Assembly (NCBI GenBank): GCA_048941285.1
Contig: JBHLNS010000052.1
Location: 1 to 20,122, forward strand
Direction: 5' to 3'
Source of the DNA: Promethearchaeota archaeon
GTDB lineage: Archaea > Asgardarchaeota > Lokiarchaeia > Sigyniarchaeales > SOKP01
Length of the DNA stretch: 20,122 nucleotides
The notes under the pieces are model-generated. The model was not told where the DNA came from, searched no databases, and saw only the letters and a list, made by a program, of their open reading frames with translations. The position numbers were made by a program, and so were the translations under genes. This document shows positions 1,777-18,569 of this stretch, piece by piece; the stretch's first letter is position 1; each line of letters starts with the position of its first letter.

Positions 1777-1933
1777 AAGAAGGTTCATTAAATCTGAAGA
1801 AATAAAAAAAAATACTAATTTATCGAGTTTAAAGGAATTACAATAAAAGAGAGAAATAATAATACAATTTCCTTAAAATCAGAGTTTATCAATATTGTTT
1901 AAAAATAGGATGGGTTAAATTTAAGGAAGTCAT

Positions 1934-3277
1934 CTAATAGAATTCACAATCAGCTAAAAGTTGTGAGATATCCATAACCTTAATAGAAGAATTATCTTCA
2001 GATGCTACTTGGTACAAATTATTCTTACAGAAAACACATGAACTTACAAGAACTTCTGCTGAGGTTTCGATAGCCTCTTTCAAACGATCTTCCCGCATTC
2101 GGGTCATACAAGCGCGTGTTTCTGTTATTCTATCTCTACCTACTTCGAGAGCAATATCACCATAGAGTGCCTTTACACCTCCTCCTGCACCACAACACCA
2201 AGACATATCTCTGTTATGCTTCATTTCGAACAGCTTGACACCTTCAATTCTTCGAATAAGTTCCCTCGGTTCTTCAAAAACATCACAATATCTTCCTAAA
2301 TGACATGGATCATGATAAGTTATAAGTAAGGGGTCTTCAATTGAACGTTTTGTATATCTTATTTTAAGATTCTTTTCTTTTGCGATCTTTAAAGCATATT
2401 GAGTAATATGATATAAATCAAATCCAAGATCGTAATTTGCAAATTTAGAATATTCTAGAGAAAATGTTGAAAAACATCCAGAACATGAGAAAACCACTTC
2501 TTTTACTCCGCTTTTCCGAATCATTTCATAGTTATGTCTTACAAGGTCCATAGCTTCATCTTCTAATCCTGTTCGGAATAATACAGAACCACAACATCTT
2601 TCTTCTGGAAAAAGAGTGAACTCAACTCCTAATTTCTTTAAAACTTGACTAGTTGCTGAAACGAGTTCTTTATTTCTATATGAAGAGGTACAACCTACAA
2701 AATAGCCAACAGAAAATTCACTTTCCTTAGCAACTTGAACCTCAGGTTTTTGCATACTCCGCTCATAAGCTTCAGCTCCTTCTTCACAAGCATTAACCCA
2801 ATTAAATCTATCCCCATGTTTTTCCAAAAAAGGATTATTATTTTCCAATATTGAACTTTTAAGGATTTTCAATTTTTCAGGCATTGCTCCCTTTTTTACA
2901 ACTTGTTTCCTAAAATTTTGAAAAACACTTAATGTATCGACTTTGACAGGACATACAACTTTACAATTACCACACAACATACAACGAAAAACTGAAGGAA
3001 TTATCTCATCCTTATCAAATTTAATGTCCTTTCTGTCTAATGCTTTAATAATTCTATTTCGCCCTCCAGCGTAATCAGTTTCGCACCAAGAAGTATTATA
3101 AACTTTACAAACATGACGGCAATACCCACAATGAGTACACCTTTCATAAGAATATCTTTCTTTAAACTTATCAGAAGGCTCGACTAAATTGTCTCTTGAG
3201 GGAGAAATTAAACCTGCTACTGGGGGGCCAGAAGTTATTACATTTTTTAAATTTTTTTTTTCTTTTCCTTCACTCAT
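1934..3277 (-). CDS. Fe-S oxidoreductase, GlcF/HdrD-like (2x[4Fe-4S] ferredoxin domain plus two CCG domains)
   Basis: Ferredoxin motifs CTHCGYCRHVC and CMLCGNCKVVCP. CCG domains YFVGC...ERCCGS...CSGC and YHDPCHLGR...WCCGAGGG...CVFC. Confidence 0.9.
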   Translation of the reverse strand: MSEGKEKKNLKNVITSGPPVAGLISPSRDNLVEPSDKFKERYSYERCTHCGYCRHVCKVYNTSWCETDYAGGRNRIIKALDRKDIKFDKDEIIPSVFRCMLCGNCKVVCPVKVDTLSVFQNFRKQVVKKGAMPEKLKILKSSILENNNPFLEKHGDRFNWVNACEEGAEAYERSMQKPEVQVAKESEFSVGYFVGCTSSYRNKELVSATSQVLKKLGVEFTLFPEERCCGSVLFRTGLEDEAMDLVRHNYEMIRKSGVKEVVFSCSGCFSTFSLEYSKFANYDLGFDLYHITQYALKIAKEKNLKIRYTKRSIEDPLLITYHDPCHLGRYCDVFEEPRELIRRIEGVKLFEMKHNRDMSWCCGAGGGVKALYGDIALEVGRDRITETRACMTRMREDRLKEAIETSAEVLVSSCVFCKNNLYQVASEDNSSIKVMDISQLLADCEFY

Positions 3278-3380
3278 TTATCATTATCTCTTTTTTAATG
3301 GTTCTCTTGTTGGAAATATAATTAATTTTTATTAAATATAGTCGTTATATATTATTCATTATTCTATTGATTTGGTTTTA

Positions 3381-4877
3381 TCAATTAGATTTCTTTATTT
3401 TAAATAATTTATACAATAGTTTTGCTGTGTTAAAAAGTAATGATACTCTCCAGAATTTCATTTTGGCTTTGGTTAATCTATAAGAATTAAATAAATGTTT
3501 TGGATCCACTTTATCCTTTAGAGTTTTCCAATTCTGTACTTCTTGAGGTTTATATTTTAGTAAATAAAAAGTATTAACAATTCCTATAGTATATAGCCTA
3601 TCTCCTTGATTGAATGCTTGAACAGTAAAATCATGCAAGAAGGCTTTAACCGCAAAGAACTCGAGAGTTCTGTCAATATCCGTTAAACCGAATATTTTTA
3701 CTCGCGTCCAACCCTTTTCTCCTGAAATTGCATAAGAAGCAGTTGGGAATTTATATTTCTTATGTTCTTTTAAATATAATTCCATAAAATTTCTTAATCT
3801 CTTATCTGAAATCCAATATTCTTGGAAAATTAAATTTCTTGTGGATAATCCTATTGATACTTCTGCATCACTAATATCACGCCACTTTTCTTTTAAATAG
3901 GAAGATTCAACCTCTACACAATTTATCTTAGACGCATATAATTTAACATCCGATATACTTTTAGAAGTTTGTTCAGGATCATCATAAAATACTGCCCAAA
4001 CAATCCATTCTTGCTTTGGGAAAGTTACATGCGAGTATTTTTCAAAATTTCTTTCTGAAATTGAAAGAAATAATGGTTTACTAGGCAGATCCTCCTTCAA
4101 TAACAAATAAAAATTAATAGCTTCTTCAATTGAATTAAAACCATATCCTATTATCTCTAAGGATGTTTTTAATGTAGTGATAGACAATTCAACGTTTGCT
4201 ATTGCTCCAAATATGCCATATGTACCTATAATATCTCCCAAACTTAATTCCTCATTAGAATCTCTGGAAATCTTAATTATTGATCCATCCGGTTTAACCA
4301 ATTCTAAGGAAATGATAGTAGATTCCATTTTTCCGTATTTAATGACACCTATACCTGCTTTTCCTGGAGTAGCAATGAATCCCCCTACACAAGAAGTTTT
4401 AAAACTAGTTGGAAAAGTCTTAGGTTCAAGACCATAATCAGATAACGCTTCTATTAAATTTAACCAAGAAATTCCACTACCTACTTTCACCGTCATTTTC
4501 TCTTGATTTATTTCATGAACTTTGTTTAATCTACGTATATCTATAATTACTCCTCCCATAGAGGGAGTTGCTGAAGAAAAACAAGAAGTTCCAGCTGCCC
4601 TAATTGTAATAGGAATATTAAGTTTTCTACATTTTTTTATTGCCATTGATAATTCATTAACATTAGCTGGGCGTATAACATAACTGGCTAAATATTGTTT
4701 TTTAAACTTATAATGATATGCGGGTAGAGAAGTGAGATCAGCCGAAGCAGATTCAAGTTCAAATGGATTGGTGCTCACATGGTAAGGAGAGATAAATTCT
4801 AAAAATTGATCTTCAAGATCTTTACGTCCACTTTTTCTTTTATTACTTTTCGCTTTATTATTATTAGACTGAACCAA
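3381..4877 (-). CDS. FAD-binding oxidoreductase, GlcD/D-lactate dehydrogenase (VAO/PCMH) family
   Basis: VIRPANVNEL...ITIRAAGTS...GGVIIDIRRLN, SCVGGFIAT, GTYGIFGAI, and C-terminal LKDKVDPKHLFN. TTG start with GAGGT Shine-Dalgarno upstream. Adjacent to a GlcF-like partner. Confidence 0.88.
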   Translation of the reverse strand: MVQSNNNKAKSNKRKSGRKDLEDQFLEFISPYHVSTNPFELESASADLTSLPAYHYKFKKQYLASYVIRPANVNELSMAIKKCRKLNIPITIRAAGTSCFSSATPSMGGVIIDIRRLNKVHEINQEKMTVKVGSGISWLNLIEALSDYGLEPKTFPTSFKTSCVGGFIATPGKAGIGVIKYGKMESTIISLELVKPDGSIIKISRDSNEELSLGDIIGTYGIFGAIANVELSITTLKTSLEIIGYGFNSIEEAINFYLLLKEDLPSKPLFLSISERNFEKYSHVTFPKQEWIVWAVFYDDPEQTSKSISDVKLYASKINCVEVESSYLKEKWRDISDAEVSIGLSTRNLIFQEYWISDKRLRNFMELYLKEHKKYKFPTASYAISGEKGWTRVKIFGLTDIDRTLEFFAVKAFLHDFTVQAFNQGDRLYTIGIVNTFYLLKYKPQEVQNWKTLKDKVDPKHLFNSYRLTKAKMKFWRVSLLFNTAKLLYKLFKIKKSN

Positions 4878-4899
4878 TTTACCTCAACACCTATAACTA

Positions 4900-5772
4900 T
4901 CAAATTAATAATAAATTGGAGTTTAAAAAATAACCTAATAGGAAAGCACCCCACCAACTTACCAACGTAATATAACCTGTAATTTTTGCTGGCTTTCTTT
5001 CAGCTGCAATTCCAAACAGCATGCTTAAAAAGCCAGTGACTAAGCCTAATGCCCCTAGAATAATGTGCGGTAAGTGATAGATTAATTCATAGCCTCCAAG
5101 CCAAGCTCCAGCTGGTATTCTTATAAAAGCGGCAATAACATTGATAGTCGTTAAAATCCAAGAACCGCCTGCAAGGATCCCATGAATTTTAACGAATTTA
5201 TTTTCATTCACTAAAACTAAGATCGTTGCAAGTGTGAGTGCTAGTAATGCTGGCATTCCTAAATATAAACCTAAATGATTAAATATTGCAGAAAACAGAT
5301 CAAATCCGGGTGGGACCCCAATTATTATCTCAACATAGGCAAATTGTTGACCCCCAGTAAGGTTATTTCCTGAGATTATAAAGAGTTTATAGGATTCTTG
5401 CTCTACGATTGGTGTCACATTGAAGATTATAGTCATCGCATTGGGATTTGGGTCAAGATCATCTCCCGAGGCATCAACTATTTTATCTTTTGAAGGAATT
5501 ATGTTAAATTTATCATTATCTTTGGCACCAGGGTAAGCTTGTACAAATAAATCAGGTCCGGTTGCAGAAATGTTAAACACAAAATATGGAGTATTATTTA
5601 TTTCAGTTCTTACAGGATTAGTATATGAAATTGTATAAGCCCCTGATGAGTCATGACACCCACTAGAAGAATGTGTATCACCAAATGGAGGTCTTGCAGT
5701 TCCAAAGATAAAAATTGAAACAATCATCAATCCCATAATGCAAGAAAATATAACGAGAATTTTCTTTTTCAT
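4900..5772 (-). CDS. Secreted single-Cys H-x4-CH domain fused to a 4-TM His-containing (cytochrome b561/DUF420-like) membrane domain; candidate atypical cytochrome
   Basis: Signal peptide, then ARPPFGDTHSSSGCH (motif 5653-5673), KDNDKF and TPIVEQESYKL shared with three paralogs. Four C-terminal hydrophobic helices carry NHLG, KIHG and YHLPH histidines. Confidence 0.7.
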   Translation of the reverse strand: MKKKILVIFSCIMGLMIVSIFIFGTARPPFGDTHSSSGCHDSSGAYTISYTNPVRTEINNTPYFVFNISATGPDLFVQAYPGAKDNDKFNIIPSKDKIVDASGDDLDPNPNAMTIIFNVTPIVEQESYKLFIISGNNLTGGQQFAYVEIIIGVPPGFDLFSAIFNHLGLYLGMPALLALTLATILVLVNENKFVKIHGILAGGSWILTTINVIAAFIRIPAGAWLGGYELIYHLPHIILGALGLVTGFLSMLFGIAAERKPAKITGYITLVSWWGAFLLGYFLNSNLLLI

Positions 5773-5964
5773 GATATCTAGTTTTCCCGATTTGACGTAT
5801 TTTTAATCTATGAGTATTTCTTTTTAAACATTTTTTATATATTTTAAAAATAAGGATTTAATTAAAAGAATAGAGCAAAAATTACACCTATTTTATGTAC
5901 TTTTGTTTTTATTATAAAAATCTTTATTAAAATTCTTAAATAATACATTCTAGGTGTTTTTTTA

Positions 5965-7662
5965 ATGCTGAGTAATATATCTATAAAAAAGATTCTTGTT
6001 ATTAATTTGAGCTTAATTCTTTTACTTACATTTATACTACCATTATTATTAGATTTAATAGAATTAAGCTATAGAATTGTTTTTATATCCTTTCTTGGTA
6101 TTTTTTTGATCATATTTCTAATTGCTATCACAATCTTGGACGCCATTTTTCTAATGATTAAAAAACAAAATGTTTATTTTTTAACCGTTTTAACCATGAG
6201 TTTATCGTTGTTATTGTTTTTAATTATGATTTATAGTTTTTTAAATAATATTTATAAAATTGTATATGTAATGAATTATAGCAACAATTCCCTCCCTCTA
6301 ATTTATAAAGTTGTAGCAATCTGGGCTGGTGAAGAAGGGTCAATTATGACTTGGATGTTATTTAATTCAATAATAATCAATCTCTATAGAATTAAAAACC
6401 ATAACAAACAAGATTTAATTTTTATTCGTTCTGTAATTTTATCATCTATTATTTCATCATTTTTCTCAATAATATTATTATTCTTACATCCTTTTGAACT
6501 CCAACCATCCTCTCCTCCTGATGGATTAGGTTTAAATCCACTTTTAATATCTCCATTTATGATTTGGCATCCTTTTTTTACATTTATTGCATATGCTGTT
6601 TATTTAGTGCCATTTACTATAATAATCGCTGAAATAACAACACGCAAATTAAAACTTTTAGAATCTTTTCAAGATAAATTCTATAACTTTACCTTAAAAT
6701 TTGGATGGTTAGTTATGACTCTCAGTATCGGCTTAGGTGCATATTGGGCTAAAATCGCGTTAACTTGGGGCAGATATTGGGGTTGGGATCCAGTTGAAAC
6801 TGTTTCCCTCATTCCATGGTTTTTTATAACAGCTTTCTTTCATACTATGATTTTTAAGAAAAAAAAACCCATATTAATAAAGATAAATGTAGCTTTAGTT
6901 TTTTCCTCAATTATATTTTCAACATTAATTACACGAGGAGGAGGGTTAAGTTCACTCCATGCATTCACAGGAGAAGCAGAATTAGTTGTATGGGTAGTAG
7001 TTTTAGGCCTAATTTTAATCTTACTTCCCCTTTATGTAATTTATATTGTATTAGATTATTTAATGGAGGAATATCAGAATAAAAAACTATTCTTTGATTA
7101 CTTAAGTTATTTATTTTTAATTGGTTTAGCTTTTGTTTGTATCTTTGGACTATTTATCCCTCCATTTACCTATCTTCTTTCAGGTTTAATTCCAATAAAT
7201 ATTGTTTTCATTGGGAGCGATTATTTTATAATAACATCCTTAATTTTAGCAACGGGTTTGGCTTTAACATTGATTTTTTGTTCATTATGGGAATATTTTA
7301 GTATTAAAAATATAGTGTTTGTTATAATTATAGGATTGTTAATTCAAATTACATTCTCATTTACATTATTATTTATATCTAATATCTGGATAAATCCAGT
7401 TCTGTTAATATATTTAATGTCATTTTTTTCTTCTGTCTTCAAATTAACAAAAAATTTAATTTCAAAAAAAGGATTTAAATATTTTTTTAGGTTGAATTCA
7501 AAAACAATTATTCATGCTGGAATTTCCCTGATTCTTGCCGGATTTTTAATATCTTCAAATCTTCAAGATATCTTTTTCATTCCAGGATTCTTACTTCTAT
7601 TAATAGGTATAATTCCTTTAATTATTATCAGCTTTTTCCAAGAAAGACGGAGTTCAAGCTAA
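5965..7662 (+). CDS. ccmF: Cytochrome c synthetase (heme lyase) CcmF, compact form
   Basis: AIWAGEEGS, DGLGLNPLL, MIWHP, WWD domain WGRYWGWDPVET, FFH, TRGG-SSLHAF and C-terminal IIHAG; polytopic membrane protein. Confidence 0.93.
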   Translation: MLSNISIKKILVINLSLILLLTFILPLLLDLIELSYRIVFISFLGIFLIIFLIAITILDAIFLMIKKQNVYFLTVLTMSLSLLLFLIMIYSFLNNIYKIVYVMNYSNNSLPLIYKVVAIWAGEEGSIMTWMLFNSIIINLYRIKNHNKQDLIFIRSVILSSIISSFFSIILLFLHPFELQPSSPPDGLGLNPLLISPFMIWHPFFTFIAYAVYLVPFTIIIAEITTRKLKLLESFQDKFYNFTLKFGWLVMTLSIGLGAYWAKIALTWGRYWGWDPVETVSLIPWFFITAFFHTMIFKKKKPILIKINVALVFSSIIFSTLITRGGGLSSLHAFTGEAELVVWVVVLGLILILLPLYVIYIVLDYLMEEYQNKKLFFDYLSYLFLIGLAFVCIFGLFIPPFTYLLSGLIPINIVFIGSDYFIITSLILATGLALTLIFCSLWEYFSIKNIVFVIIIGLLIQITFSFTLLFISNIWINPVLLIYLMSFFSSVFKLTKNLISKKGFKYFFRLNSKTIIHAGISLILAGFLISSNLQDIFFIPGFLLLLIGIIPLIIISFFQERRSSS

Positions 7663-7975
7663 AAACAAACTAAATGAATTTTTTCTATAATAGACTCCTT
7701 AACTGTATAAAATGCTAATGAGCATATCAATTTCTATGAAAAGCGATTAAAAACTAACATGTTGAAATTCAATTCTTTTGAATTTAAAAATAAATAGAAT
7801 AAAGTATTTTCAATGGTTCAAATTGAAACTAACAAATCGATCTTAGTCTTAAAATGAAACTAAACCTTATTCAACCGTTAGAAATAACCAGTTTTGACAA
7901 ATCTTTTAATATTTCTTAGATACTGAAAAATTAAGAATATAAATTTTTCGATAAATATTAAAAAAGAGATATTGT

Positions 7976-10852
7976 ATGAGATTAAATAAGAAACTCGCAT
8001 CATTTTTAGTCCTTTCTATATTTGTCTTTTCTATTATTGGATTTGCAGTAGCTAGATCGAGCTTTTTTGCTGATTTTATAGGAAATGGGCATTCTGGATC
8101 TTGCCATAATGGAAACTTTATTTTGAGTTCTTCCGGTTATATCGATATAAGTTCAAGTTCAGGAAATACCGTAAATTTAGGTGAAATTTTTACTCTCACT
8201 ATAGATATTTTCTCATTCAGTGAAGCTGCGAGTGCTAAGAAAGTAGACTCAGGTTTTCCGAATGGAAATCCTGGTCGCGGTGATAATAAGCAATTTATTT
8301 TTTCCCCTAATCCTCCAAAACTTGAAGTTGATATTGATGGTTCAGGTAATTCTATTAATTCATTAAATTATCAAGTGACTGCTCCAATTACAGAGGGGAG
8401 TTACACCTTAATAGCTGATGCTATTTTTAAGGGCTCTACATATACTTATTATGCTACAGGAAATTTTGTCATCAATGTAATTTTACCTAATAATGCCCCT
8501 CAATTTAATAATCTTATTAAGAGTAGCGATCCTTTAGAATTAGGACAAGGAGAAACAGTTCAAATAGATGTCATTGATACTGAAACAAGTGTTAGTGATG
8601 TTCTCATTGAAATTGAAAGCATAAATTATACTATGACAAATTCTATAGCGGATACATATGAATACAATTGGATTCCGTCTAGTACAGGCTTAGTATTATA
8701 TACAATATATGCAAACGATACTGATGGAAGTTGGAATTCTATTAGTGATAGTATAAATGTAATTGATACAACTGCACCAACATTTTCTAATTTGGTTGAA
8801 AGTTACGACCCATTAGAATTAGGACAAACAGAAATAATCCAAATTAATGCTACAGATCTGTCAGGAATAAGTCAAGTATCTATTGAAATAAGTGGTATGA
8901 ATTATTCCATGGTAAATGTAATTGGTTCAACTTGGGAGTATAACACTTGGACTCCTACTAGCATAGGATTAAAATCTTACATAATTTATGCAAATGATAC
9001 ATTAGGAAATTTAAATTCAATAAGCAGTGATATCACAATTTTGGATACAATTGCACCAACCTACGCCTTTTTAATTGAAAGTGCTGATCCACTACCACTG
9101 GGACAAAATGAAACCATTTCAATTGAAGTATATGATTCACCAGGTTCTGGAGTAAAAGAAGTACTGTTAGAGTATAACAATTTTAATCATACTATGAATT
9201 TCGTTGGTTTTAATACGTGGCATTGGTCTAATTGGAAGCCGTCCTCTATAGGAATTTTTGATTACGTTATTTACATGATTGATAACAGTAATAATTTAAA
9301 TATAACAACAGGATCTATTGATGTATTTATTTCATCTGGACCAACAATACAAAATTTGTCAAAAAGCTCTAATCCTTTGGAATTAGGGCAAATAGAGACA
9401 ATTCAAGTTGACGTTGAAGATAATGATGGAGTGAGCGAAATTTTTATTGAAATCAATGCGATCAATTATACAATGGTACCGATTGGTGGAGTGAGATATG
9501 AATATAGTTGGGTACCAAATTCTTTTGGAACGAAATTTTTTAAAATATATGCTAAGGATTCTTTAAATAATTGGAATCAGATAACTGATAATATCATTGT
9601 ACAAGATACAACACCTCCAAATTATGCAAATTTAACAGTAAATAGTGATCCTCTTGAATTAGGCAATTTAATAATGATTTCAATTGATGCTACAGACTTA
9701 TCAGATATAAAACAGGTGCTTATTGAATATCATGGTGCAAATCATTCAATGCATTTTATTGGGGGGAATAAATGGATAAATAATACTTGGATCCCTAATA
9801 CAGCCGATATTCATCAATACACTATTTATATTCAAGATAATGCAAACAATTGGAACTTTACGATTGGTTCTTTTCAAGTAATTGATACAACTCTTCCCAC
9901 CTTATCAAATTTAAATGAAAGCGCTGAATTTTTAGAATTAGGACAAACCGAGATAATTTCAATTGATATTTTTGATTTTGCACCTATAACTCTTGCAAAT
10001 ATTGAGATTAATAGTAATAATTACACATTGAATAATATCGGAGGAGGAACATGGCAGTATAGTTGGATTCCAGATTCTATAGGACTAAAATTCTATAGAA
10101 TATACGCTAGAGATTCAAATAATAATTGGAACTATATAGATGGCAATATTACTGCAATAGATACGAGTGGACCAACTTTTTCAAACCTATTAGAAAGTGC
10201 AGATCCATTAGAATTAGGTAATACCGCTGCAATTCAAGTAGATGTTTTTGATTTTTCTCCACTAAATTTTATTTTGTTTGAGAATGCAGGTATCAATTAT
10301 TCTATGACAAATATAGGAGGGATAACGTGGCAATTTAATAATTGGACTCCAGCAAGGATGGGATTAAAATTCTATAGTCTTCATGCTGTTGATTCACTAA
10401 ATAACATGGTATCATTAAAGAATAATATTACCGTTGTAGATACAATAGGCCCAACATTTTCAAATGTAGTTATTAATAATAAAACAATAATTATTGGGCA
10501 GTCTATTTTGATTCAAGTAGATATTATAGACCCATCTAATGTTTCTAATGTTTTAATTGAATATGAAGGTTTTAATCATTCTATGATTAACATCGCTGGA
10601 AATAGTTGGGAATATAATTGGATCCCAAGTTCAACAGGGGATATATCTTTAGTTATTTATGCAAACGACAACAATAACAATTGGAATATAATAAATTATA
10701 ATATCGTTGTTAATAAAAAATTAACATCCAATTATATAATGTCAATAAAAGAAATTATTGAAGTTACAATAAATATCAGTATAATTAGTATAATTATAGC
10801 TGGAATAGTGATCATAATAAGAACTTCAAGAACAAAACGATTTATTAAATAA
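7976..10852 (+). CDS. Large surface protein: signal peptide, single-Cys H-x3-CH domain, 8 Ig-like repeats, C-terminal TM anchor
   Basis: AVA-type cleavage site, GHSGSCH (8090-8107, the only Cys in 958 aa), GDNKQF, APITEGSYTL. Eight ~93-aa repeats, then a hydrophobic helix and basic tail. Lies between ccmF and ccmA on the same strand. Confidence 0.8.
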   Translation: MRLNKKLASFLVLSIFVFSIIGFAVARSSFFADFIGNGHSGSCHNGNFILSSSGYIDISSSSGNTVNLGEIFTLTIDIFSFSEAASAKKVDSGFPNGNPGRGDNKQFIFSPNPPKLEVDIDGSGNSINSLNYQVTAPITEGSYTLIADAIFKGSTYTYYATGNFVINVILPNNAPQFNNLIKSSDPLELGQGETVQIDVIDTETSVSDVLIEIESINYTMTNSIADTYEYNWIPSSTGLVLYTIYANDTDGSWNSISDSINVIDTTAPTFSNLVESYDPLELGQTEIIQINATDLSGISQVSIEISGMNYSMVNVIGSTWEYNTWTPTSIGLKSYIIYANDTLGNLNSISSDITILDTIAPTYAFLIESADPLPLGQNETISIEVYDSPGSGVKEVLLEYNNFNHTMNFVGFNTWHWSNWKPSSIGIFDYVIYMIDNSNNLNITTGSIDVFISSGPTIQNLSKSSNPLELGQIETIQVDVEDNDGVSEIFIEINAINYTMVPIGGVRYEYSWVPNSFGTKFFKIYAKDSLNNWNQITDNIIVQDTTPPNYANLTVNSDPLELGNLIMISIDATDLSDIKQVLIEYHGANHSMHFIGGNKWINNTWIPNTADIHQYTIYIQDNANNWNFTIGSFQVIDTTLPTLSNLNESAEFLELGQTEIISIDIFDFAPITLANIEINSNNYTLNNIGGGTWQYSWIPDSIGLKFYRIYARDSNNNWNYIDGNITAIDTSGPTFSNLLESADPLELGNTAAIQVDVFDFSPLNFILFENAGINYSMTNIGGITWQFNNWTPARMGLKFYSLHAVDSLNNMVSLKNNITVVDTIGPTFSNVVINNKTIIIGQSILIQVDIIDPSNVSNVLIEYEGFNHSMINIAGNSWEYNWIPSSTGDISLVIYANDNNNNWNIINYNIVVNKKLTSNYIMSIKEIIEVTINISIISIIIAGIVIIIRTSRTKRFIK
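8489..10711 (+). repeat. 8 tandem ~93-aa Ig-like beta-sandwich repeats
   Basis: Repeat starts NNAP, DTTAP, DTIAP, ISSGP, DTTPP, DTTLP, DTSGP, DTIGP. Consensus DPLELGQ...I.I.V.D...V.IE....N(Y/H)(T/S)M......W.Y.W.P...G...Y.IYA.D..NNWN. Confidence 0.88.
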
Positions 10853-10857
10853 AATAA

Positions 10858-10867
10858 TTTTTTTTTT
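10858..10867 (+). terminator. Oligo-T tract, candidate archaeal terminator after the 958-aa gene
   Basis: T10 starting 5 nt after the stop codon. The AT-rich background limits certainty. Confidence 0.45.
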
Positions 10868-10930
10868 AATTTTTAATTAATTCTCTTTATTAAGTTTTTT
10901 AAACAATTTTAGGAACATTGATTTGAAACT

Positions 10931-11644
10931 ATGGTTCAATCCAATAAAAATATGATAAAATGCATAAATATATCAAAACAATTTGGTTATTTTCTTGCAC
11001 TCAAAAAAATTTCTCTCACAATAAAAGAAAATACGATATTCGGGATAGCAGGAGCAAATGGGGCAGGAAAAACGACCTTAATTAAAATTTTATCAGGATT
11101 ACTTAAACCAACTTTTGGCAGTATTGAGGTTGAAGGAATGAATTATCTAAACCATTCAGATATTTTGAAACAAAATATCGGTATTACTACGGATGAATCA
11201 TTTCTTTATGAGGAACTAACTATTCTGGAAAATTTAATGTTTTATGGTAATCTTCACCTAAATTTTCAAAAAACTATTTTAAAGTCAAAAATTGAACAAA
11301 TGGTGGAACAATTCAATTTAAAAGATTGGTTAAATGAACCTGTTAGAATTTTATCTCATGGGATGAGACAAAAAGTTGAATTAATAAGAGCTTTAATACA
11401 TGAGCCTTCAATATTATTTCTGGATGAACCGTTTTCAGGATTAGATTATAATGCAACTACAATGTTGATTAATTTCTTTAAAGAATTAAAAAAAAATAAA
11501 AAGATATCGATTATTCTCTCAACTCATAAAATTGAAGTATTCCAACAAATTTGTGATGATTTGATCGTATTAAAACAAGGAAAAATCAATAAAGCTTTTA
11601 TAAATGAGAGATTTGACGAAACTGAAATTAAATCTTATTTTTAG
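10931..11644 (+). CDS. ccmA: Heme exporter ABC ATPase CcmA
   Basis: Walker A GANGAGKTT, signature LSHGMRQK, Walker B LFLDEPFSGLD, STH switch. Directly upstream of ccmB. Confidence 0.88.
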   Translation: MVQSNKNMIKCINISKQFGYFLALKKISLTIKENTIFGIAGANGAGKTTLIKILSGLLKPTFGSIEVEGMNYLNHSDILKQNIGITTDESFLYEELTILENLMFYGNLHLNFQKTILKSKIEQMVEQFNLKDWLNEPVRILSHGMRQKVELIRALIHEPSILFLDEPFSGLDYNATTMLINFFKELKKNKKISIILSTHKIEVFQQICDDLIVLKQGKINKAFINERFDETEIKSYF

Positions 11645-11656
11645 GAGGATTATATA

Positions 11657-12382
11657 ATGAAAGATGAGAAAGTAACCCTGAAATCAAAACTGAAATTACT
11701 AAAAATTATTTTATCTAAAGATATTAGATCTGAACTTAGACAAATTAATGATTTATTTTCAATATTCCTCTTTGATTTAATCTCAATCTTTATATTTTCA
11801 TCAGTATATAACTTTGGCACTCAATATCAAAATATGCCATTGGAGGTTTTTGTTATTGAAAATTGGCTCATTATATTCTTTACACTTGTTTATATTATGT
11901 CTAAACTTTTCATTAAAGAGAAAGATTCTGGAACAATTGGGGGAATACTCTCATCTCCTATATCTGCTAATCTATTAATTGCAAGTAAAATCATTTTTTG
12001 TCTAATTCTACTAAGTTTTGTAGAGTTAATCCTTTTTCTCTTTAGTACATTTATATCAGTGCCTTCTATTAGTAACTTTAACGCCTCTCAATTAATGATT
12101 TATGTCTTTTTGGGTATTTTATTACCGACATTGGATCTATCTATATGTGGGAGTTTAGTCTCTGCTTTTTCTATGTATGTTAAGAATAAATCTTTTATTT
12201 TGCCAATTTTGCTTTTTCCATTAATTCTTCCTATTATTACTCCCATTATTTCAATTAATATAAAAATCTTAGAAGGTGAATTAATAACTAGTCTATATTA
12301 TGAAATTATATTTTTTTGCGCCCATATTGTTCTCATGAGTTCGATAACGATATTAACTTCACAAGCTCTCTTATACGATTAA
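11657..12382 (+). CDS. ccmB: Heme exporter permease CcmB
   Basis: KDIRSELR, FIKEKDSGT..GILSSP, ASKI, ILPILLFPLILP motifs; about 6 TM. GGAGG SD at the ccmA/ccmB junction. Confidence 0.92.
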   Translation: MKDEKVTLKSKLKLLKIILSKDIRSELRQINDLFSIFLFDLISIFIFSSVYNFGTQYQNMPLEVFVIENWLIIFFTLVYIMSKLFIKEKDSGTIGGILSSPISANLLIASKIIFCLILLSFVELILFLFSTFISVPSISNFNASQLMIYVFLGILLPTLDLSICGSLVSAFSMYVKNKSFILPILLFPLILPIITPIISINIKILEGELITSLYYEIIFFCAHIVLMSSITILTSQALLYD

Positions 12383-12389
12383 ATAAGAT

Positions 12390-12734
12390 TTAACTACATT
12401 GAGTAAGGATTTGGGTTGCTACTAAAACCAATGAGGAATTAAAAACACCTGTTACCACAACTTCAATTCCATTCTCAAGATCACTAGGAGGAGTTAACCC
12501 ATTTATATCGACATAAATACTATAATCTCCCTCAGTTAAATTGAAGTAGTTAGCATTAAAATCTTCAACAATCCCGATAATTTGAACTTCTTTATTATCA
12601 TATTTGGTGGGATTTAAGGCGACTTGAGAAACTTTAAGATAAGGGCGTGCATTAGTGGTAAGTAATGTAATTATGATTATTATAGATATAATAATTCCTA
12701 CAATTGCAATAATTTTAGATTTTTTTAGCTTCAT
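12390..12734 (-). CDS. ccmE: Heme chaperone CcmE, Cys-type, C-terminally truncated
   Basis: N-terminal TM, YLKVSQV, OB-fold (VQIIGIV...PSDLENGIEVVVTG...ATQILTQC). Ends Cys-Ser-stop where HxxxY/CxxxY normally lies. Confidence 0.88.
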   Translation of the reverse strand: MKLKKSKIIAIVGIIISIIIIITLLTTNARPYLKVSQVALNPTKYDNKEVQIIGIVEDFNANYFNLTEGDYSIYVDINGLTPPSDLENGIEVVVTGVFNSSLVLVATQILTQCS

Positions 12735-12894
12735 TGTCTATTTCTTTTAAGTTATTATCTAAATTTTTAATTCTTTTTAATATCTTTTTTAATCTAAGTT
12801 TAGGATATAAGATTAGAATTATAATAACTGCCCAAAAAAATATATAACTAACAATTATAGTTATTAAATCTTGATAGAAATATTGTAATAACAT
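12715..12894 (-). CDS. ccmD: CcmD-like small membrane protein (59 aa, missing from the ORF track)
   Basis: Hand translation: MLLQYFYQDLITIIVSYIFFWAVIIILILYPKLRLKKILKRIKNLDNNLKEIDNEAKKI*. One TM then a basic tail, GAGGAG SD in the end of ccmC, located exactly between ccmC and ccmE. Confidence 0.8.
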   Translation of the reverse strand: MLLQYFYQDLITIIVSYIFFWAVIIILILYPKLRLKKILKRIKNLDNNLKEIDNEAKKI

Positions 12895-12899
12895 TTAAT

Positions 12900-13631
12900 T
12901 TACTCCTCGATTAACCTTTTTTGTATAATTAGATCTAATTTTTCTTTTGTTTTATCTAATTCTCCTAACCTTTGAATAACATAAAAAAATAAGATGGTTA
13001 TTCCGATCAAATTAAAAATTAACATAAAAATTTTCACTGGATCCCAGTAAATATTCCCAGGTTCTCCAGGAGTTGGATTAATTAATGGATGTAAACTTGT
13101 GAATATAATAGCAGAGAAGTAACTCAAGGGAACTGTTGGAAATAATGTGATACCTAAAACTGAAGATAATTTTGCTCTTTTTTCTTTATCTTCAATCATA
13201 CTTCTAAAGATTAAATAAGATAGATAACAAAGAAGTAACACTAAAGTCATAGTTTGTCTCCCATCACTCCATTGCCAAAATATATTGTTATAATCTCCAG
13301 AAGTAGCATTGTACCATAAAGATCCGGTAATTAAAGTAAATGCAGTAAAAAATACTCCTACAATAATACTATTTGTACCTAAACGGTTCCAATTTAATTC
13401 GTGTTTCTTTAAATAAATGATATGAAATAATAAACTAATACCAAATGACAAATATGCAAGCCATGCCCCAGAGACATGGTAAAAAAATATAATGTATACT
13501 ATACGATTAGGACTCCCCCATAAAATTAGGTTTAAAGAAGTTAGGATTAAAATTAATAACAAATTGATAACAAGCATTGTCAAAGAAAGGATTAACATAA
13601 AGTTAGACTGAAATATTTTCCTACCTTTCAT
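12900..13631 (-). CDS. ccmC: Heme transporter/chaperone loader CcmC with a divergent WWD domain
   Basis: IFFYHVSGAW (His1), LITGSLW...WQWSDGRQT (WWD), YLIFR, TSLHP (His2); about 6 TM. Confidence 0.92.
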   Translation of the reverse strand: MKGRKIFQSNFMLILSLTMLVINLLLILILTSLNLILWGSPNRIVYIIFFYHVSGAWLAYLSFGISLLFHIIYLKKHELNWNRLGTNSIIVGVFFTAFTLITGSLWYNATSGDYNNIFWQWSDGRQTMTLVLLLCYLSYLIFRSMIEDKEKRAKLSSVLGITLFPTVPLSYFSAIIFTSLHPLINPTPGEPGNIYWDPVKIFMLIFNLIGITILFFYVIQRLGELDKTKEKLDLIIQKRLIEE

Positions 13632-13732
13632 AATGGAATATTATTGAATTAAAATTTTGATATATTTTCATATAAATTTAATTAATTTTACATTTAAGAC
13701 ATTTTTTTTTAACATTTAAAATTTGAGGTTAT

Positions 13733-13749
13733 AAAAAAAAAAAAAAAAA
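13733..13749 (-). terminator. T17 tract (minus strand), candidate terminator of the 15074->13759 gene pair
   Basis: Run of 17 A on the + strand, beginning about 10 nt past the stop of 13759..14424. Confidence 0.55.
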
Positions 13750-13758
13750 TTAAAAATT

Positions 13759-14424
13759 TCATTTCTTTTTACGTCTAATCAATAGGATGATTACTCCAGA
13801 GGCAGCAATTCCACCTGCAATATATAAAAATGCATTATTAAATGGTATGAACGATACTAAGGAAGCAATGTTAACAGAATCTGAAGTCACTGTAAATACT
13901 AATGTTTTATGAAGATAAATAATAGACTGTGCATCACCAGTAGTATTCATTGCGTTAACAACAGCAATTACTAAATTATATACTCCATCAGTTTCAGGGG
14001 GTAATACTCTAAATTTTAATGGATTGACTGTATTTCCATTTGCATTTAATTCAACTTCCCATATTGCGACACCCCAGTAATCAGTAAGCCCATTAACTGT
14101 GTTTTCTGCGATTCCTAATCCAAATTCTTTATTATCACCTAGCCCATAAGGAATACTGATAGCAAAGCTTCCTGATCTACCATTATTAGATTCAAGAGCA
14201 TCAGTAAAACCTTGTATTGAGGTTCTAAGGGTGACTAATCTCCCAGATGTTACTGTCGATACTGTTAATGTTCCTGCTGAAGCTGCATCACTAGAACCAT
14301 GACATCCTGTATGGGAAGCACCTTGATAATTCAGAATTTCGGTGGGATATGCGACAGCTGTACCGATTACTCCCACGGCTAAAGCTGTTAATAAAAAGAG
14401 CATTAATACTTTACTATTTTTCAT
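13759..14424 (-). CDS. Secreted, membrane-anchored single-Cys HxxCH domain protein; candidate atypical c-type cytochrome
   Basis: Signal peptide AVA|YP, SHTGCH (HTGCH at 14299-14313, the only Cys), GDNKEF, PPETDGVYNL, C-terminal TM plus RRKKK. Confidence 0.75.
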   Translation of the reverse strand: MKNSKVLMLFLLTALAVGVIGTAVAYPTEILNYQGASHTGCHGSSDAASAGTLTVSTVTSGRLVTLRTSIQGFTDALESNNGRSGSFAISIPYGLGDNKEFGLGIAENTVNGLTDYWGVAIWEVELNANGNTVNPLKFRVLPPETDGVYNLVIAVVNAMNTTGDAQSIIYLHKTLVFTVTSDSVNIASLVSFIPFNNAFLYIAGGIAASGVIILLIRRKKK

Positions 14425-15074
14425 TTTGAATCATCTCCTCTCTTTTTTTTACGGATTACAACGAGAACTATAGGAACAACAGCAAGAAGTCCAGAAGCAA
14501 TTATAAAGATTAATCCATAACCAGGAATAGCACCACCTGAGGATTTAACAGTAACTGTTACTGTGGTTTTAATATAATTAAATGGTTGAACAGTTGCGAA
14601 TGATTCTCCACCATCAACCGCTACGATAGTTAATGTATGTGCACCACCAGTAACAGGAGCATATACAAGAAGTGTTACTGTATTATTACCATTTCCAGAG
14701 GAATCCAATCCAACTTCAAACGCGATTGCTTCAAGATTTCCAGAATGATTTTGAACACCAAAAAAGAAACCATGATTATCACTAATTCTAGCTGATATGC
14801 CAACTAAAACATGCTTATTTGCTGCCGCTGTAAATCCAGTTATAGTAAGTGTAACATTAAATTGAGTCCCAGGATCAATTATATCAGTGCTAATATTAAC
14901 TGGTGAAACTGTTGCAGATAAAGTGCCAGCTGATTCTGTATAAGTTCCCGCATGACACGAACCATGATCCATTTCTTCCCATTCTATCATATAACCAGGC
15001 CATGCGCTAACAGTACCTACTATTGCGAATACAAAGAATACTATAATGAACAATCGTAAAAATTTTTTGTTCAC
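14421..15074 (-). CDS. Secreted single-Cys HxxCH domain protein with an IPGY (Loki-CTERM/PGF-CTERM-like) sorting tail; candidate atypical c-type cytochrome
   Basis: GTG start, signal peptide VSA|WP, DHGSCH (HGSCH at 14952-14966, the only Cys), SDNHGF, APVTGGAHTL, IPGY-TM-RKKKR. ATGA overlap with the next paralog. Confidence 0.75.
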   Translation of the reverse strand: MNKKFLRLFIIVFFVFAIVGTVSAWPGYMIEWEEMDHGSCHAGTYTESAGTLSATVSPVNISTDIIDPGTQFNVTLTITGFTAAANKHVLVGISARISDNHGFFFGVQNHSGNLEAIAFEVGLDSSGNGNNTVTLLVYAPVTGGAHTLTIVAVDGGESFATVQPFNYIKTTVTVTVKSSGGAIPGYGLIFIIASGLLAVVPIVLVVIRKKKRGDDSK

Positions 15075-17242: not shown

Positions 17243-18565
17243 ATGGCTGTAAAAGTAGCATTCTTACAAAATTCTGATTGCTGGGGGTGCCATCAAAGCT
17301 TATTAAATCTACATTTGAGTTTGCTTAATGTCCTCCCCGCATTAGAGATTGTCTATTGGCCAGCTGTAGTAGATTTCAAATATGATTCGTTAAAAGCAAG
17401 AGAAGACGGTGAGATCCTTGTAGGATTCGTTGAGGGAAGTCTACGGACTAAACACGATATTGCACAAACGAAATTATTAAGACAAAAATGTGCTTTAATC
17501 ATAGCTTTTGGTAGTTGTTCATGCTATGGTAATGTACATGGATTAGCTAATCAATGGAGTATAGAAGATCTAGTAAAGCGTAAATTTTCCGAAGTTGAGA
17601 GTATAGCAGATGAAAGTGGTGGTGAACCTATGGTTAACACTCCTGGATTTGCTGATAAAATTGTTCCTGTCGATGAGATTATTAAAGTTGATGCATATAT
17701 GGCAGGTTGCCCTCCCAAACCAGAGGCAATTGCTAGTGCAGTTGTTTTTCTATTAGGTCAAAAACCCCAACCAATGAATGATTTAGCATTCTGTAATGAC
17801 TGTTCTATTAAAGATAATTGTTTATTAGATAAAGGGACATTATGTTTCGGACCAATTACTAGTATTGGATGTAGTCTTAAATGTACTAGTGATAATAAAC
17901 CTTGTGTTGGCTGCTTTGGACCTGCTAAAACTGTTGATTCACGAGCAGATAAATTAAACAATATGGCGAATAATCTTAATTCTCTTAATAGTGGTGATAA
18001 AAAGAGTCTTTATGAATTCTTACCTCTCTTCTTAAATCTTCCTCTTATGGCAGGATTTGATTTAGCTGGAGATATTTTAAAACAGGTTAAAAAACATGGA
18101 ACTCCAGATACTCCTTTAGCAAATCTTCCACCTACAACTGAAGAGTTAGCAGGAAAAATAATGGCATTCTTAAGAGATAATCGTGATTTCACAGAAATCT
18201 CAAATGTATGCGATACTTGTCCAAGAATAATTGGTAGTAAATCAACAATGACAAGAGTAAAACGAGATTATGAAGGCCTTCCTAATATGGATGATTGTTT
18301 TATAGAACAAGGTTATATATGTGTAGGTCCGATTACTAGAGCTGGTTGCGGTGGAATGTGTATAAAGGTTAACTCTCCATGTACTGGTTGTTTCGGTCAG
18401 ACTGAATGGAATGTTAATCAAGCAGAGAGATTTGCTGATACAGTAATAAAGGGATTCAATGTAAATTTATCTAAAGATGAAATTCTTAATCAAGTAAAAG
18501 ATCCATTGGGTACTTTTGAGAAATTTACATTGGCATCAAATAGAAGTTATAAAGGAGGCGAATAA
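17243..18565 (+). CDS. vhuG: [NiFe(Se)] hydrogenase group 3c small subunit (MvhG/VhuG) with a duplicated Fe-S module
   Basis: Proximal-cluster ligands DCWGC, FVEGS, AFGSC, GCPP, followed by two copies of the 8-Cys medial/distal module. Confidence 0.88.
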   Translation: MAVKVAFLQNSDCWGCHQSLLNLHLSLLNVLPALEIVYWPAVVDFKYDSLKAREDGEILVGFVEGSLRTKHDIAQTKLLRQKCALIIAFGSCSCYGNVHGLANQWSIEDLVKRKFSEVESIADESGGEPMVNTPGFADKIVPVDEIIKVDAYMAGCPPKPEAIASAVVFLLGQKPQPMNDLAFCNDCSIKDNCLLDKGTLCFGPITSIGCSLKCTSDNKPCVGCFGPAKTVDSRADKLNNMANNLNSLNSGDKKSLYEFLPLFLNLPLMAGFDLAGDILKQVKKHGTPDTPLANLPPTTEELAGKIMAFLRDNRDFTEISNVCDTCPRIIGSKSTMTRVKRDYEGLPNMDDCFIEQGYICVGPITRAGCGGMCIKVNSPCTGCFGQTEWNVNQAERFADTVIKGFNVNLSKDEILNQVKDPLGTFEKFTLASNRSYKGGE

Positions 18566-18569
18566 AAAA

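Follow-up and report, generated by a model that had tools for sequence, protein, structure and literature searches.

Exported H-x(2-4)-CH proteins among cytochrome c maturation genes

The window analysed here is an entire 20,122-bp contig (C88) of a Promethearchaeota archaeon, an Asgard archaeon whose assembly (G000) consists of 3.55 Mb in 101 contigs with 29.7% GC and is 94% complete. Genes were called from an open reading frame (ORF) map together with Pfam and NCBIfam, and the motif coordinates were checked by translation. The window encodes a cytochrome c maturation (Ccm) machinery, and interleaved with ccmF, ccmA, ccmB, ccmE, a ccmD-like ORF and ccmC lie four genes for exported proteins of 290, 958, 221 and 217 amino acids (aa), each of which carries an N-terminal H-x(2-4)-CH motif (Table 1). 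These four proteins, and their relation to haem and to the Ccm machinery, are the subject of this study.

An earlier note on this DNA had described the four proteins as exported paralogs with a membrane anchor and a single Cys in the mature chain. All four ORFs and their motifs (HSSSGCH, HSGSCH, HTGCH and HGSCH) were indeed found at the positions claimed, by ORF map and translation. Each N-terminus is hydrophobic (Kyte-Doolittle maximum 2.7–3.1) and is followed by an A-x-A-like site, in line with export, and the motifs lie 8–17 residues past this site. The 958-, 221- and 217-aa proteins contain one Cys each; the 290-aa protein has two, one of which lies inside the signal peptide, so that the single-Cys description holds for every mature protein. 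In all four proteins the first Cys of the canonical C-x-x-C-H motif (hereafter Cys1) is a His, and only the C-H is retained. The membrane anchor was also recovered, as one C-terminal transmembrane (TM) helix in three of the proteins and as a domain of four TM helices (4-TM) in the 290-aa protein.

The paralogy was confirmed by BLASTP, which gave E = 1e-19 between the 221- and 217-aa proteins, and by a four-way alignment. In this alignment the H, C, H, D-N..F and P residues are invariant; the DNxxF motif and the P..(Y/H)xL strand proposed in the earlier note are therefore real. AlphaFold2 (AF2) models predict that the four paralogs share a common immunoglobulin-like (Ig-like) β-sandwich of ~150 residues. 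In the model of the 290-aa protein (predicted local distance difference test, pLDDT, 87) this β-sandwich spans ~aa 47–152, while the motif segment is below 50, as expected if the segment folds around a cofactor. The model of the 221-aa protein has a pLDDT of 83. The 958-aa protein is composed of an N-terminal HSGSCH domain, eight tandem Ig-like repeats of ~93 aa (aa 176–896) and a C-terminal TM anchor.

The 4-TM domain of the 290-aa protein contains four His residues, His166, His197, His233 and His236, that are invariant in 105 sequences. In the predicted topology, His166 and His233/His236 are near the outer face and His197 is near the inner face, and the conserved His set makes this domain a candidate b-haem site. 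Foldseek searches of the PDB returned 0 matches at E ≤ 1e-3 for the 221-aa model, and for the 290-aa model only generic Ig and 4-helix matches and nothing specific. In the ESM Atlas all scores were below 0.9, with clusters named 'hypothetical' and 'Reelin domain' from Thermoplasmatota; these matches served as a lead only and carry no weight here.

The C-terminus of the 217-aa protein and those of many family members consist of IPG(Y/F), a hydrophobic helix and an R/K-rich end, which by eye resembles PGF-CTERM. The PGF-CTERM model of NCBIfam did not match the 217- or 221-aa protein, and this tail may be an Asgard sorting signal. An ApbE-type flavinylation site was also considered for the 'SAGT' that follows the motif, and was dropped because its residue order differs from the S/T-G-A-T/S motif.

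Conservation, canonical relatives and the maturation machinery

We first ask how far the motif is conserved. For the 290-aa protein, 173 relatives were found at E ≤ 0.001, and H-x(1-4)-CH is present in 118 of the 120 homologs listed, the other two being N-truncated; the first His is therefore kept in 118/118 of the N-complete members of this subfamily. For the 221-aa protein the databases hold 23 relatives, which come from Asgard metagenome-assembled genomes and are without exception unnamed or 'hypothetical'; the H, C and H are invariant in 16 aligned orthologs. A profile of the four paralogs, searched against 1.84 billion representatives, gave 78 proteins, which mostly have H-x(2-7)-CH, and scattered exceptions carry CxxCH (P0206, P0215) or CxCH (P0202, P0213) at the motif position. 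In an alignment of 61 diverse members, the Cys and the next His are the sole invariant residues. The invariance of Cys and His that the earlier note had asked for is thus found for 'CH' throughout the family and for the first His within the 290-aa subfamily.

The family was then compared with Ccm across 400 profiled Asgard genomes, in which PF01578 marks CcmC and CcmF. PF01578 is found in 104/400 genomes and the family in 32/400, and all 32 are within the 104, so that no homolog was found in a genome without Ccm; homologs common in such genomes would, according to the earlier note, have spoken against its proposal. Within f1, the window's own Asgard family of 135 genomes including G000, the family and Ccm occur together in 29 genomes, and only two Ccm-positive genomes are without the family, G196 and G235. 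The former has one PF01578 match, at a contig start in a genome that is 88% complete; the latter has PF01578 at E = 8.5e-4, apparently one of the 2/104 matches that are below the cut-off. Carriers are patchy within genera (18/54 and 11/42), which indicates that the cluster is kept or lost as a block. The synteny with ccm genes was likewise retained, as the gene order of the cluster is the same in G207, G263 and G227.

A second Asgard family, f31, provides the closest link to canonical cytochrome motifs. Here, matches of the four-paralog profile are found near ccm genes, and they agree with the window proteins in the N-terminal placement of the motif and in the Ig-like domain. A ~400-aa form in addition ends in a 4-TM domain that has the four invariant His of the 290-aa protein, and GlcD-like and HdrD-like genes come next, as in the window. 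Among 30 f31 loci, the motif is CxxCH in 12, Cx3CH in three, Cx4CH in 11 and Cx5CH in two, with one locus N-truncated and one not parsed; C-x(2-5)-CH is thus present in 28/28 N-complete orthologs, and a His at the Cys1 position is seen in none of them. The first His of the window proteins aligns on this Cys1, both in BLASTP (E = 1e-8, with His34) and in a multiple alignment, and the x2 and x4 spacings are used by both the f1 and the f31 lineages. Ccm is present in 34/35 of the f31 genomes with a full-length ortholog, the exception being 60% complete. Only these 35 full-length matches of the f31 ortholog profile were used, the overall tally of 244/400 being inflated by the generic Ig-like middle domain. 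From these sequence comparisons, the four window proteins are homologous to proteins with the canonical motif, though they themselves lack CXXCH.

A quick IQ-TREE analysis places the 290-aa H..CH clade as sister to the f31 C..CH clade (SH-aLRT 97). Over the family, the state at the first position changes between C and H at least 3–4 times in this tree, whose backbone is weak with 31/78 forks open. The tree left out the matches to Ig repeats only (P0149, P0187, P0191, P0192, P0216 and P0220), the fragments P0201, P0212 and P0217, and all but five of the 290-aa family matches.

Several f31 and related loci have features of their own. The f31 loci L013 (G351:C148:18000-37999) and L014 (G342:C36:16000-35999) contain three tandem GlcD-like/HdrD-like gene pairs, and the neighbour of each pair is either a member of the C..CH family or a small membrane protein. 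The loci also encode an octahaem protein (457–501 aa; PF14522, PF13435) and an exported protein of 725–735 aa that belongs to no family, and look like a larger electron-transfer island. A stand-alone 136-aa homolog of the 4-TM domain is found in L014. We also considered whether the 290-aa protein arose by fusion of an f31 gene pair, and dropped this because the 167-aa DUF2231-like membrane protein of f31 has no BLASTP similarity to the 4-TM domain. L018 (G189:C1:3292000-3310000), from a single-contig relative, holds a variant cluster in which CcmF is present as two paralogs in tandem (594 and 588 aa) and CcmE is short, with the end ..ILTYCCDRSTGV. This cluster encodes one protein with HDYMGCH, and its relative of the 4-TM protein, of 371 aa, is without a motif in the first 100 residues.

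The machinery itself had been called a full ccmABCDEF cluster. This stands for CcmF and CcmC, and CcmB and CcmE score above their cut-offs; the ABC ATPase in the CcmA position matches generic ABC models only, and CcmD is weakly supported because its PF04995 score is below the cut-off (Table 1). No CcmA-specific model is among the best 25 matches of the ATPase, which is beside CcmB in all syntenic loci. Located between ccmC and ccmE, the CcmD-like ORF shares 20 nucleotides (nt) with the start of ccmE. CcmC has the motifs YHV, WQWS (WWD-like) and LHP, and CcmF keeps the landmarks NPLL..HP, WGRYWGWDPVE, PW..H, SSLH and IIHAG, which comprise the WWD motif and four His. All ccm ORFs of the syntenic loci that we read are undamaged and retain the catalytic His and the WWD motifs. 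Neither Pfam nor NCBIfam revealed CcmH, CcmI, CcmG or CcdA/DsbD in the window; in a small sample of five genomes, CcdA/DsbD (PF02683) gave no match in G000 or G260, a weak one in G207, and was found in G351 and G370.

Two components of this machinery vary together with the motif. CcmE of the window has Cys113 and stops at Ser114, so that the Tyr of CxxxY and the C-terminal tail are missing, and the ...TQCS end is found in 4/4 f1 loci (G000, G207, G263 and G227). In f31 and f32, CcmE ends in ..CPSKYE.. in 4/5 matches, the fifth being a second copy in G342 without the motif; this end corresponds to the archaeal CxxxY known from Methanosarcina acetivorans (PMC9084895). CcmF of f1 (563–579 aa) does not have the ~95-residue C-terminal-side periplasmic insert of f31/f32 CcmF (664–690 aa), and in the alignment with f31 and f32 CcmF it has an N-terminal extension. 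Canonical System I reportedly matures single-Cys apocytochromes very poorly, and these stall as adducts of CcmE, haem and cytochrome (PMC3268396). The co-variation of CcmE and CcmF with the motif matters for this reason, and it supports the view that the maturation system was remodelled together with its putative clients, at the CcmE tail and at the CcmF insert.

We also searched the whole assembly for other Ccm clients. ORFs with an N-terminal hydrophobic segment and H.{1,6}CH in the first 90 residues number five genome-wide; four of them are the proteins described here and the fifth has 77 aa, and the H..CH motif at exported N-termini is beyond chance. CxxCH occurs in 30 ORFs, only one of which, of 63 aa, has an N-terminal hydrophobic segment, and a C-x(2-4)-CH scan added two further ORFs with a hydrophobic N-terminus (75 and 111 aa). 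Since all three are antisense within longer ORFs, they are probable shadow ORFs. The claim that the window has no exported CxxCH substrate thus extends to the assembly: none of its CxxCH ORFs is a credible exported protein, which leaves the Ccm cluster without a canonical client there. In G000, G207, G217, G249 and G260, PF14522 had no match above cut-off and two below it, and the f31 octahaem protein as query gave zero matches in the same five genomes.

Table 1 Genes and ORFs of the 20,122-bp window.
Feature	Position (nt)	Strand	Remarks
Leucine-rich repeat (LRR) protein	1-1776	+	≥582 aa, runs off contig start; non-LRR N-terminal region
HdrD/GlcF/TfrB-like Fe-S protein, 2 x CCG + 4Fe-4S dicluster domain	1934-3277	-	PF02754, PF13183
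GlcD-like FAD-binding oxidoreductase	3381-4877	-	PF01565; directly downstream of 290-aa gene
290-aa exported protein, HSSSGCH aa 34-40 (nt 5653-5673)	4900-5772	-	putative cytochrome c; subunit for electron entry at the membrane
CcmF haem lyase, 565 aa	5965-7662	+	PF01578 90.6 bits; TIGR00353 E=1.8e-43
958-aa exported protein, HSGSCH aa 39-44 (nt 8090-8107)	7976-10852	+	Big_7 match; profile matches aa 1-192
ABC ATPase in CcmA position	10931-11644	+	PF00005 only
CcmB permease	11657-12382	+	PF03379 41.5 bits vs cut-off 24.9
CcmE, 114 aa, ending ...ILTQCS-stop	12390-12734	-	PF03100 33.6 bits vs cut-off 24.6
CcmD-like 59-aa single-TM ORF	12715-12894	-	PF04995 E=4.9e-4, 20.5 bits, below cut-off 25.6
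CcmC, 243 aa	12900-13631	-	PF01578 59.6 bits; TIGR01191
221-aa exported protein, HTGCH aa 38-42 (nt 14299-14313)	13759-14424	-	Ig-like domain, C-terminal TM helix then RRKKK
217-aa exported protein, HGSCH aa 37-41 (nt 14952-14966)	14421-15074	-	Ig-like domain; IPGY + TM + RKKK tail
Lrp/AsnC-like protein with C-terminal Cys cluster, 195 aa	15361-15948	-	Lrp/LysM-type regulator models
Lrp/AsnC-like paralog with C-terminal Cys cluster, 187 aa	16334-16897	+	Lrp/LysM-type regulator models
VhuG/VhuA-like [NiFe] hydrogenase	17243-18565, 18516-19874	+	small subunit, large subunit

Proposed electron-transfer context and interpretation of the H..CH proteins

Downstream of the 290-aa gene come, in every case, the GlcD-like and HdrD-like genes, an order that f1 and f31 loci have in common. 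The GlcD-like protein matches TIGR00387 (E = 3e-29) and the HdrD-like protein, a conserved operon partner, matches NF004898 (E = 3.6e-55), both below cut-off. A complex prediction for the HdrD-like protein and the 4-TM domain (aa 150–290) had a score of 0.00 and gives no verdict.

Other neighbours accompany the cluster in related genomes. The Lrp-like proteins are divergently placed, each ends in C-x3-C-x2-C ... C-x2-C-G-N-F, and they adjoin the H..CH/ccm cluster in G207, G263 and G227 too; they may regulate the cluster in response to redox state, metal or haem. We rejected the possibility that this pair represents AhbA/B siroheme decarboxylases, because the two match only Lrp/LysM-type regulators, while AhbA/B of G227 match NF040707 and NF040708. 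The VhuG/VhuA-like hydrogenase is a cluster neighbour in G207 and G263 as well. Its small subunit has 440 aa, of which three stretches match a model of 286 positions, and so carries an extra Cys-rich part at the C-terminus. For the large subunit, the TTG given as the start lies within the gene of the small subunit, and translation probably starts at an ATG further downstream. The LRR protein also flanks the cluster in G207 and G263.

We consider it likely, with good confidence, that the four proteins are Ccm-matured haem proteins, namely exported, membrane-anchored mono-haem c-type cytochromes of an undescribed Ig-like family. The earlier note had proposed them as dedicated Ccm substrates with a single Cys, and the co-occurrence with Ccm, the invariance of the Cys-His pair and the aligned C-x(2-5)-CH orthologs argue for this proposal. 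The interleaving with ccm genes, the lack of another client in G000, the co-varying CcmE and CcmF and the low model confidence of the motif segment also favour it. We infer the binding of haem, the number of thioethers, and the flow of electrons and its direction. CcmABC, with the CcmD-like ORF, would load haem onto Cys113 of CcmE, and CcmF would pass it to the invariant Cys of the N-terminal H-x(2-4)-C-H to form one thioether. The adjacent His would be the proximal iron ligand, and the first His, which takes the sequence position of Cys1, may be a distal ligand, form a covalent link or aid in the release of haem from CcmE. A CcmE without the Tyr-bearing tail, a CcmF without the periplasmic insert and the absence of CcmH would then reflect a system remodelled with its clients.

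The neighbouring genes suggest what such cytochromes might be used for. In an HdrDE-like arrangement, the cytoplasmic GlcD-like flavoprotein and the HdrD-like Fe-S protein would feed the 4-TM domain of the 290-aa protein, which would hand electrons to its own outward-facing c-haem. The 217- and 221-aa proteins, as surface cytochromes, and the 958-aa protein, with a haem domain on a stalk of eight Ig repeats, could carry the electrons further out. The module is probably an outward electron conduit for extracellular electron transfer, fed by a GlcD/HdrD-like dehydrogenase.

Several observations weigh against this interpretation. Neither AF2 model resembles any known cytochrome fold. A His, a Cys and a His could also bind a metal ion. 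In the 958-aa protein, one haem atop a long Ig stalk cannot conduct electrons along that stalk. The spacing between the first His and the Cys ranges from 1 to 7 residues and the first His is missing in 5/81 members, the rows of the tree set, so that it is not a rigid part of the site. The family-positive genomes are kin, and the co-occurrence counts are therefore not independent. Given the poor handling of single-Cys apocytochromes by canonical System I, on which they stall (PMC3268396), the f1 system would have to work differently.

The supply of haem is a further point of this kind. HemB (PF00490) and HemC (PF01379) were not found in G000 at its 94% completeness, and HemB is absent from 4/5 other f1 cluster carriers, all four of which are 100% complete. 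HemB is also absent from 5/5 f31/f32 genomes, and since two of these, G351 and G370, have canonical C-x(n)-CH family members (in G351 together with an adjacent octahaem protein), the absence is not specific to the H..CH variant. This points to haem scavenging in both the f1 and the f31/f32 carriers. The sole f1 carrier with HemB among the five others examined is G227, whose complete, siroheme-dependent Ahb-type haem-synthesis operon (L026, G227:C2:46000-65999, 1119-9583 (-)) lies ~12 kb from its H..CH/ccm cluster, a proximity that speaks for the haem interpretation. The operon encodes a CobA-HemD fusion, HemC, HemA, a fusion of AhbB and precorrin-2 dehydrogenase, AhbA, an AhbD/NirJ2-like protein, HemL and HemB, and it is absent from G000 and the four other complete carriers.

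A bolder version of the cytochrome interpretation, which we hold to be possible but doubtful, has the first His bonded covalently to the 2-vinyl of the haem in addition to the Cys link, to give a mixed His/Cys doubly tethered haem c. A His-vinyl bond is of the kind made by His130 of bacterial CcmE. The tail-less, Tyr-less Cys-CcmE and the trimmed CcmF would in this case resolve the adduct of CcmE, haem and apocytochrome. If true, this would be new covalent haem chemistry and a new System I subtype, and the proteins would form an uncounted route of extracellular electron transfer from Loki-type Asgard archaea to syntrophic partners or minerals.

Among explanations without a cytochrome, the one that fares best, though we think it improbable, treats H..CH as a Cu, Zn or Ni site on an Ig-like surface domain, acting in metal delivery as a metallochaperone or in metal redox in the manner of CopC or cupredoxins, with ccm serving another client. 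Soft metals are typically bound by residues such as His, Cys and His, the proteins fold as a β-sandwich and the spacing varies as in loop metal sites. The layout of the 290-aa protein, a β-sandwich joined to a His-rich membrane domain, may resemble that of CopC-CopD. However, CopC, CopD and cupredoxins gave no Pfam or NCBIfam match at E ≤ 0.1 and are in none of the Foldseek lists of both models. G000 also offers no other Ccm client, the co-occurrence with Ccm is 32/32, the orthologs carry the haem c signature C-x(2-5)-CH, and CcmE and CcmF co-vary with the motif.

It is more improbable still that the four are degenerate former cytochromes that lost Cys1 and no longer bind haem, living on as structural or adhesive surface proteins beside a relic ccm cluster. 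The very poor performance of canonical Ccm on single-Cys substrates, the lack of haem synthesis in most of these genomes and the adhesin-like 958-aa protein with its eight Ig repeats would all fit such a history. Strong purifying selection on the Cys-His pair and on the first His argues against decay, as do the intact ccm ORFs of the syntenic loci with their catalytic His and WWD motifs. The replacement residue, moreover, is always His rather than random, and the cluster is kept or lost as a unit.

We give the same small chance to a haem-capture relay of a haem auxotroph, similar to NEAT/Isd, in which surface Ig-like domains of differing reach would bind haem reversibly through His and perhaps Cys and pass it inward, and Ccm would handle the scavenged haem. 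The missing HemB and HemC and the graded lengths, from the 958-aa stalk through short anchored forms to the membrane-domain fusion, are consistent with a relay, and NEAT domains are Ig-like in fold. No NEAT match was found, however, and the C-x(n)-CH orthologs imply covalent haem that cannot be transferred. Electron transfer is suggested instead by the flavoprotein and the HdrD-like Fe-S protein of the conserved operon, and G227 makes its own haem yet retains the cluster.

Least probable of all is a role as Ccm accessory factors, that is, chaperones that mimic apocytochromes or replace CcmH/CcmI: the missing CcmH and CcmI and the embedding of the genes among ccm genes speak for it, but it would leave G000 without any client, a set of four paralogs of which one has eight Ig repeats and one has a 4-TM domain in a dehydrogenase operon is unlike a chaperone, and M. 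acetivorans reportedly requires only CcmABCEF (PMC9084895).

If the four proteins are mono-haem cytochromes, a lineage whose only Ccm clients have H-x(n)-CH, together with co-changed CcmE and CcmF, would be a natural experiment on how haem exits from CcmE and on the purpose of Cys1. Scans for CxxCH would call these genomes cytochrome-free, although three or four such proteins are encoded in each of at least 29/135 f1 genomes. A syntrophic way of life is generally assumed for Asgard archaea of this type. The dehydrogenase, the His-rich 4-TM domain, the surface cytochromes and the adjacent Mvh-type hydrogenase suggest an electron outlet besides H2 and formate, which bears on models of the partnership that led to eukaryotes. 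As most carriers are HemB-less, haem scavenging in anoxic sediments is implied. Our literature search, which did not cover supplementary files, found nothing on HxxCH motifs, on Loki-type Asgard Ccm or on cytochrome c maturation in Asgard archaea, and a preprint on Costa Rica sediment treats multihaem cytochromes only in general terms.

Comparison with known systems

The dehydrogenase genes resemble the HdrDE/GlcDEF type, in which CCG-domain Fe-S and FAD (flavin adenine dinucleotide) subunits stand beside a His-rich membrane subunit, as in the window. The family names come from the NCBIfam matches, all of them below cut-off. In contrast to these enzymes, the membrane subunit of the window combines a 4-TM domain that belongs to no known family with a putative c-haem domain on the outer side.

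Cytochrome f has its haem motif within ~25 residues of the mature N-terminus, which is often X-Pro, followed by a β-sandwich and a C-terminal TM anchor. The window proteins resemble this layout, the X-Pro start included; cytochrome f has CxxCH and no sequence similarity to them, and it is absent from the best 50 Foldseek PDB matches of both models. Because neither AF2 model gave a specific PDB match, the idea stays a resemblance in layout only.

The f31 orthologs (L013, L014, L031-L060) share the motif position, the Ig-like domain, the 4-TM domain with four His, the GlcD/HdrD-like genes and the nearby ccm genes. They differ in that Cys1 is kept, an extra middle Ig-like domain is present, CcmE has CPSKY, CcmF is longer and octahaem CxxCH proteins coexist.

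Single thioethers have been described in two other settings. The mitochondrial cytochromes c and c1 of Euglenozoa, with (A/F)XXCH, reportedly have a natural single thioether through the Cys beside the ligand His, as proposed for the window proteins, but they have a class I all-α fold, are eukaryotic, mature by a non-System I route and have Ala or Phe, not His, in first place (PMC8262978). SfmD is a reported bacterial precedent for one Cys-vinyl link with bis-His ligation outside CxxCH (HxnHxxxC), whereas it is a cytoplasmic enzyme with another motif order and fold and is not a Ccm client (PMC8179489).

The machinery compares with the streamlined archaeal System I of Methanosarcina acetivorans, which consists of CcmABCEF without CcmH or CcmI; the same source states that CxxxY is universal among archaeal CcmE proteins and that archaeal genomes have no ccmD (PMC9084895). 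The window shares with that system, as described there, the set of CcmA (here assigned by position), B, C, E and F without CcmH/CcmI, a Cys rather than a His as the putative haem-binding residue of CcmE, and a stand-alone CcmF lyase with WWD and four His. It differs in that CcmE stops at Ser directly after Cys113 and has no Tyr, a sub-threshold CcmD-like ORF is present, CcmF is without the periplasmic insert and the putative clients are without Cys1. The machinery of the window is thus System I in its streamlined archaeal form, which departs from the published description at CcmE, CcmD and CcmF.

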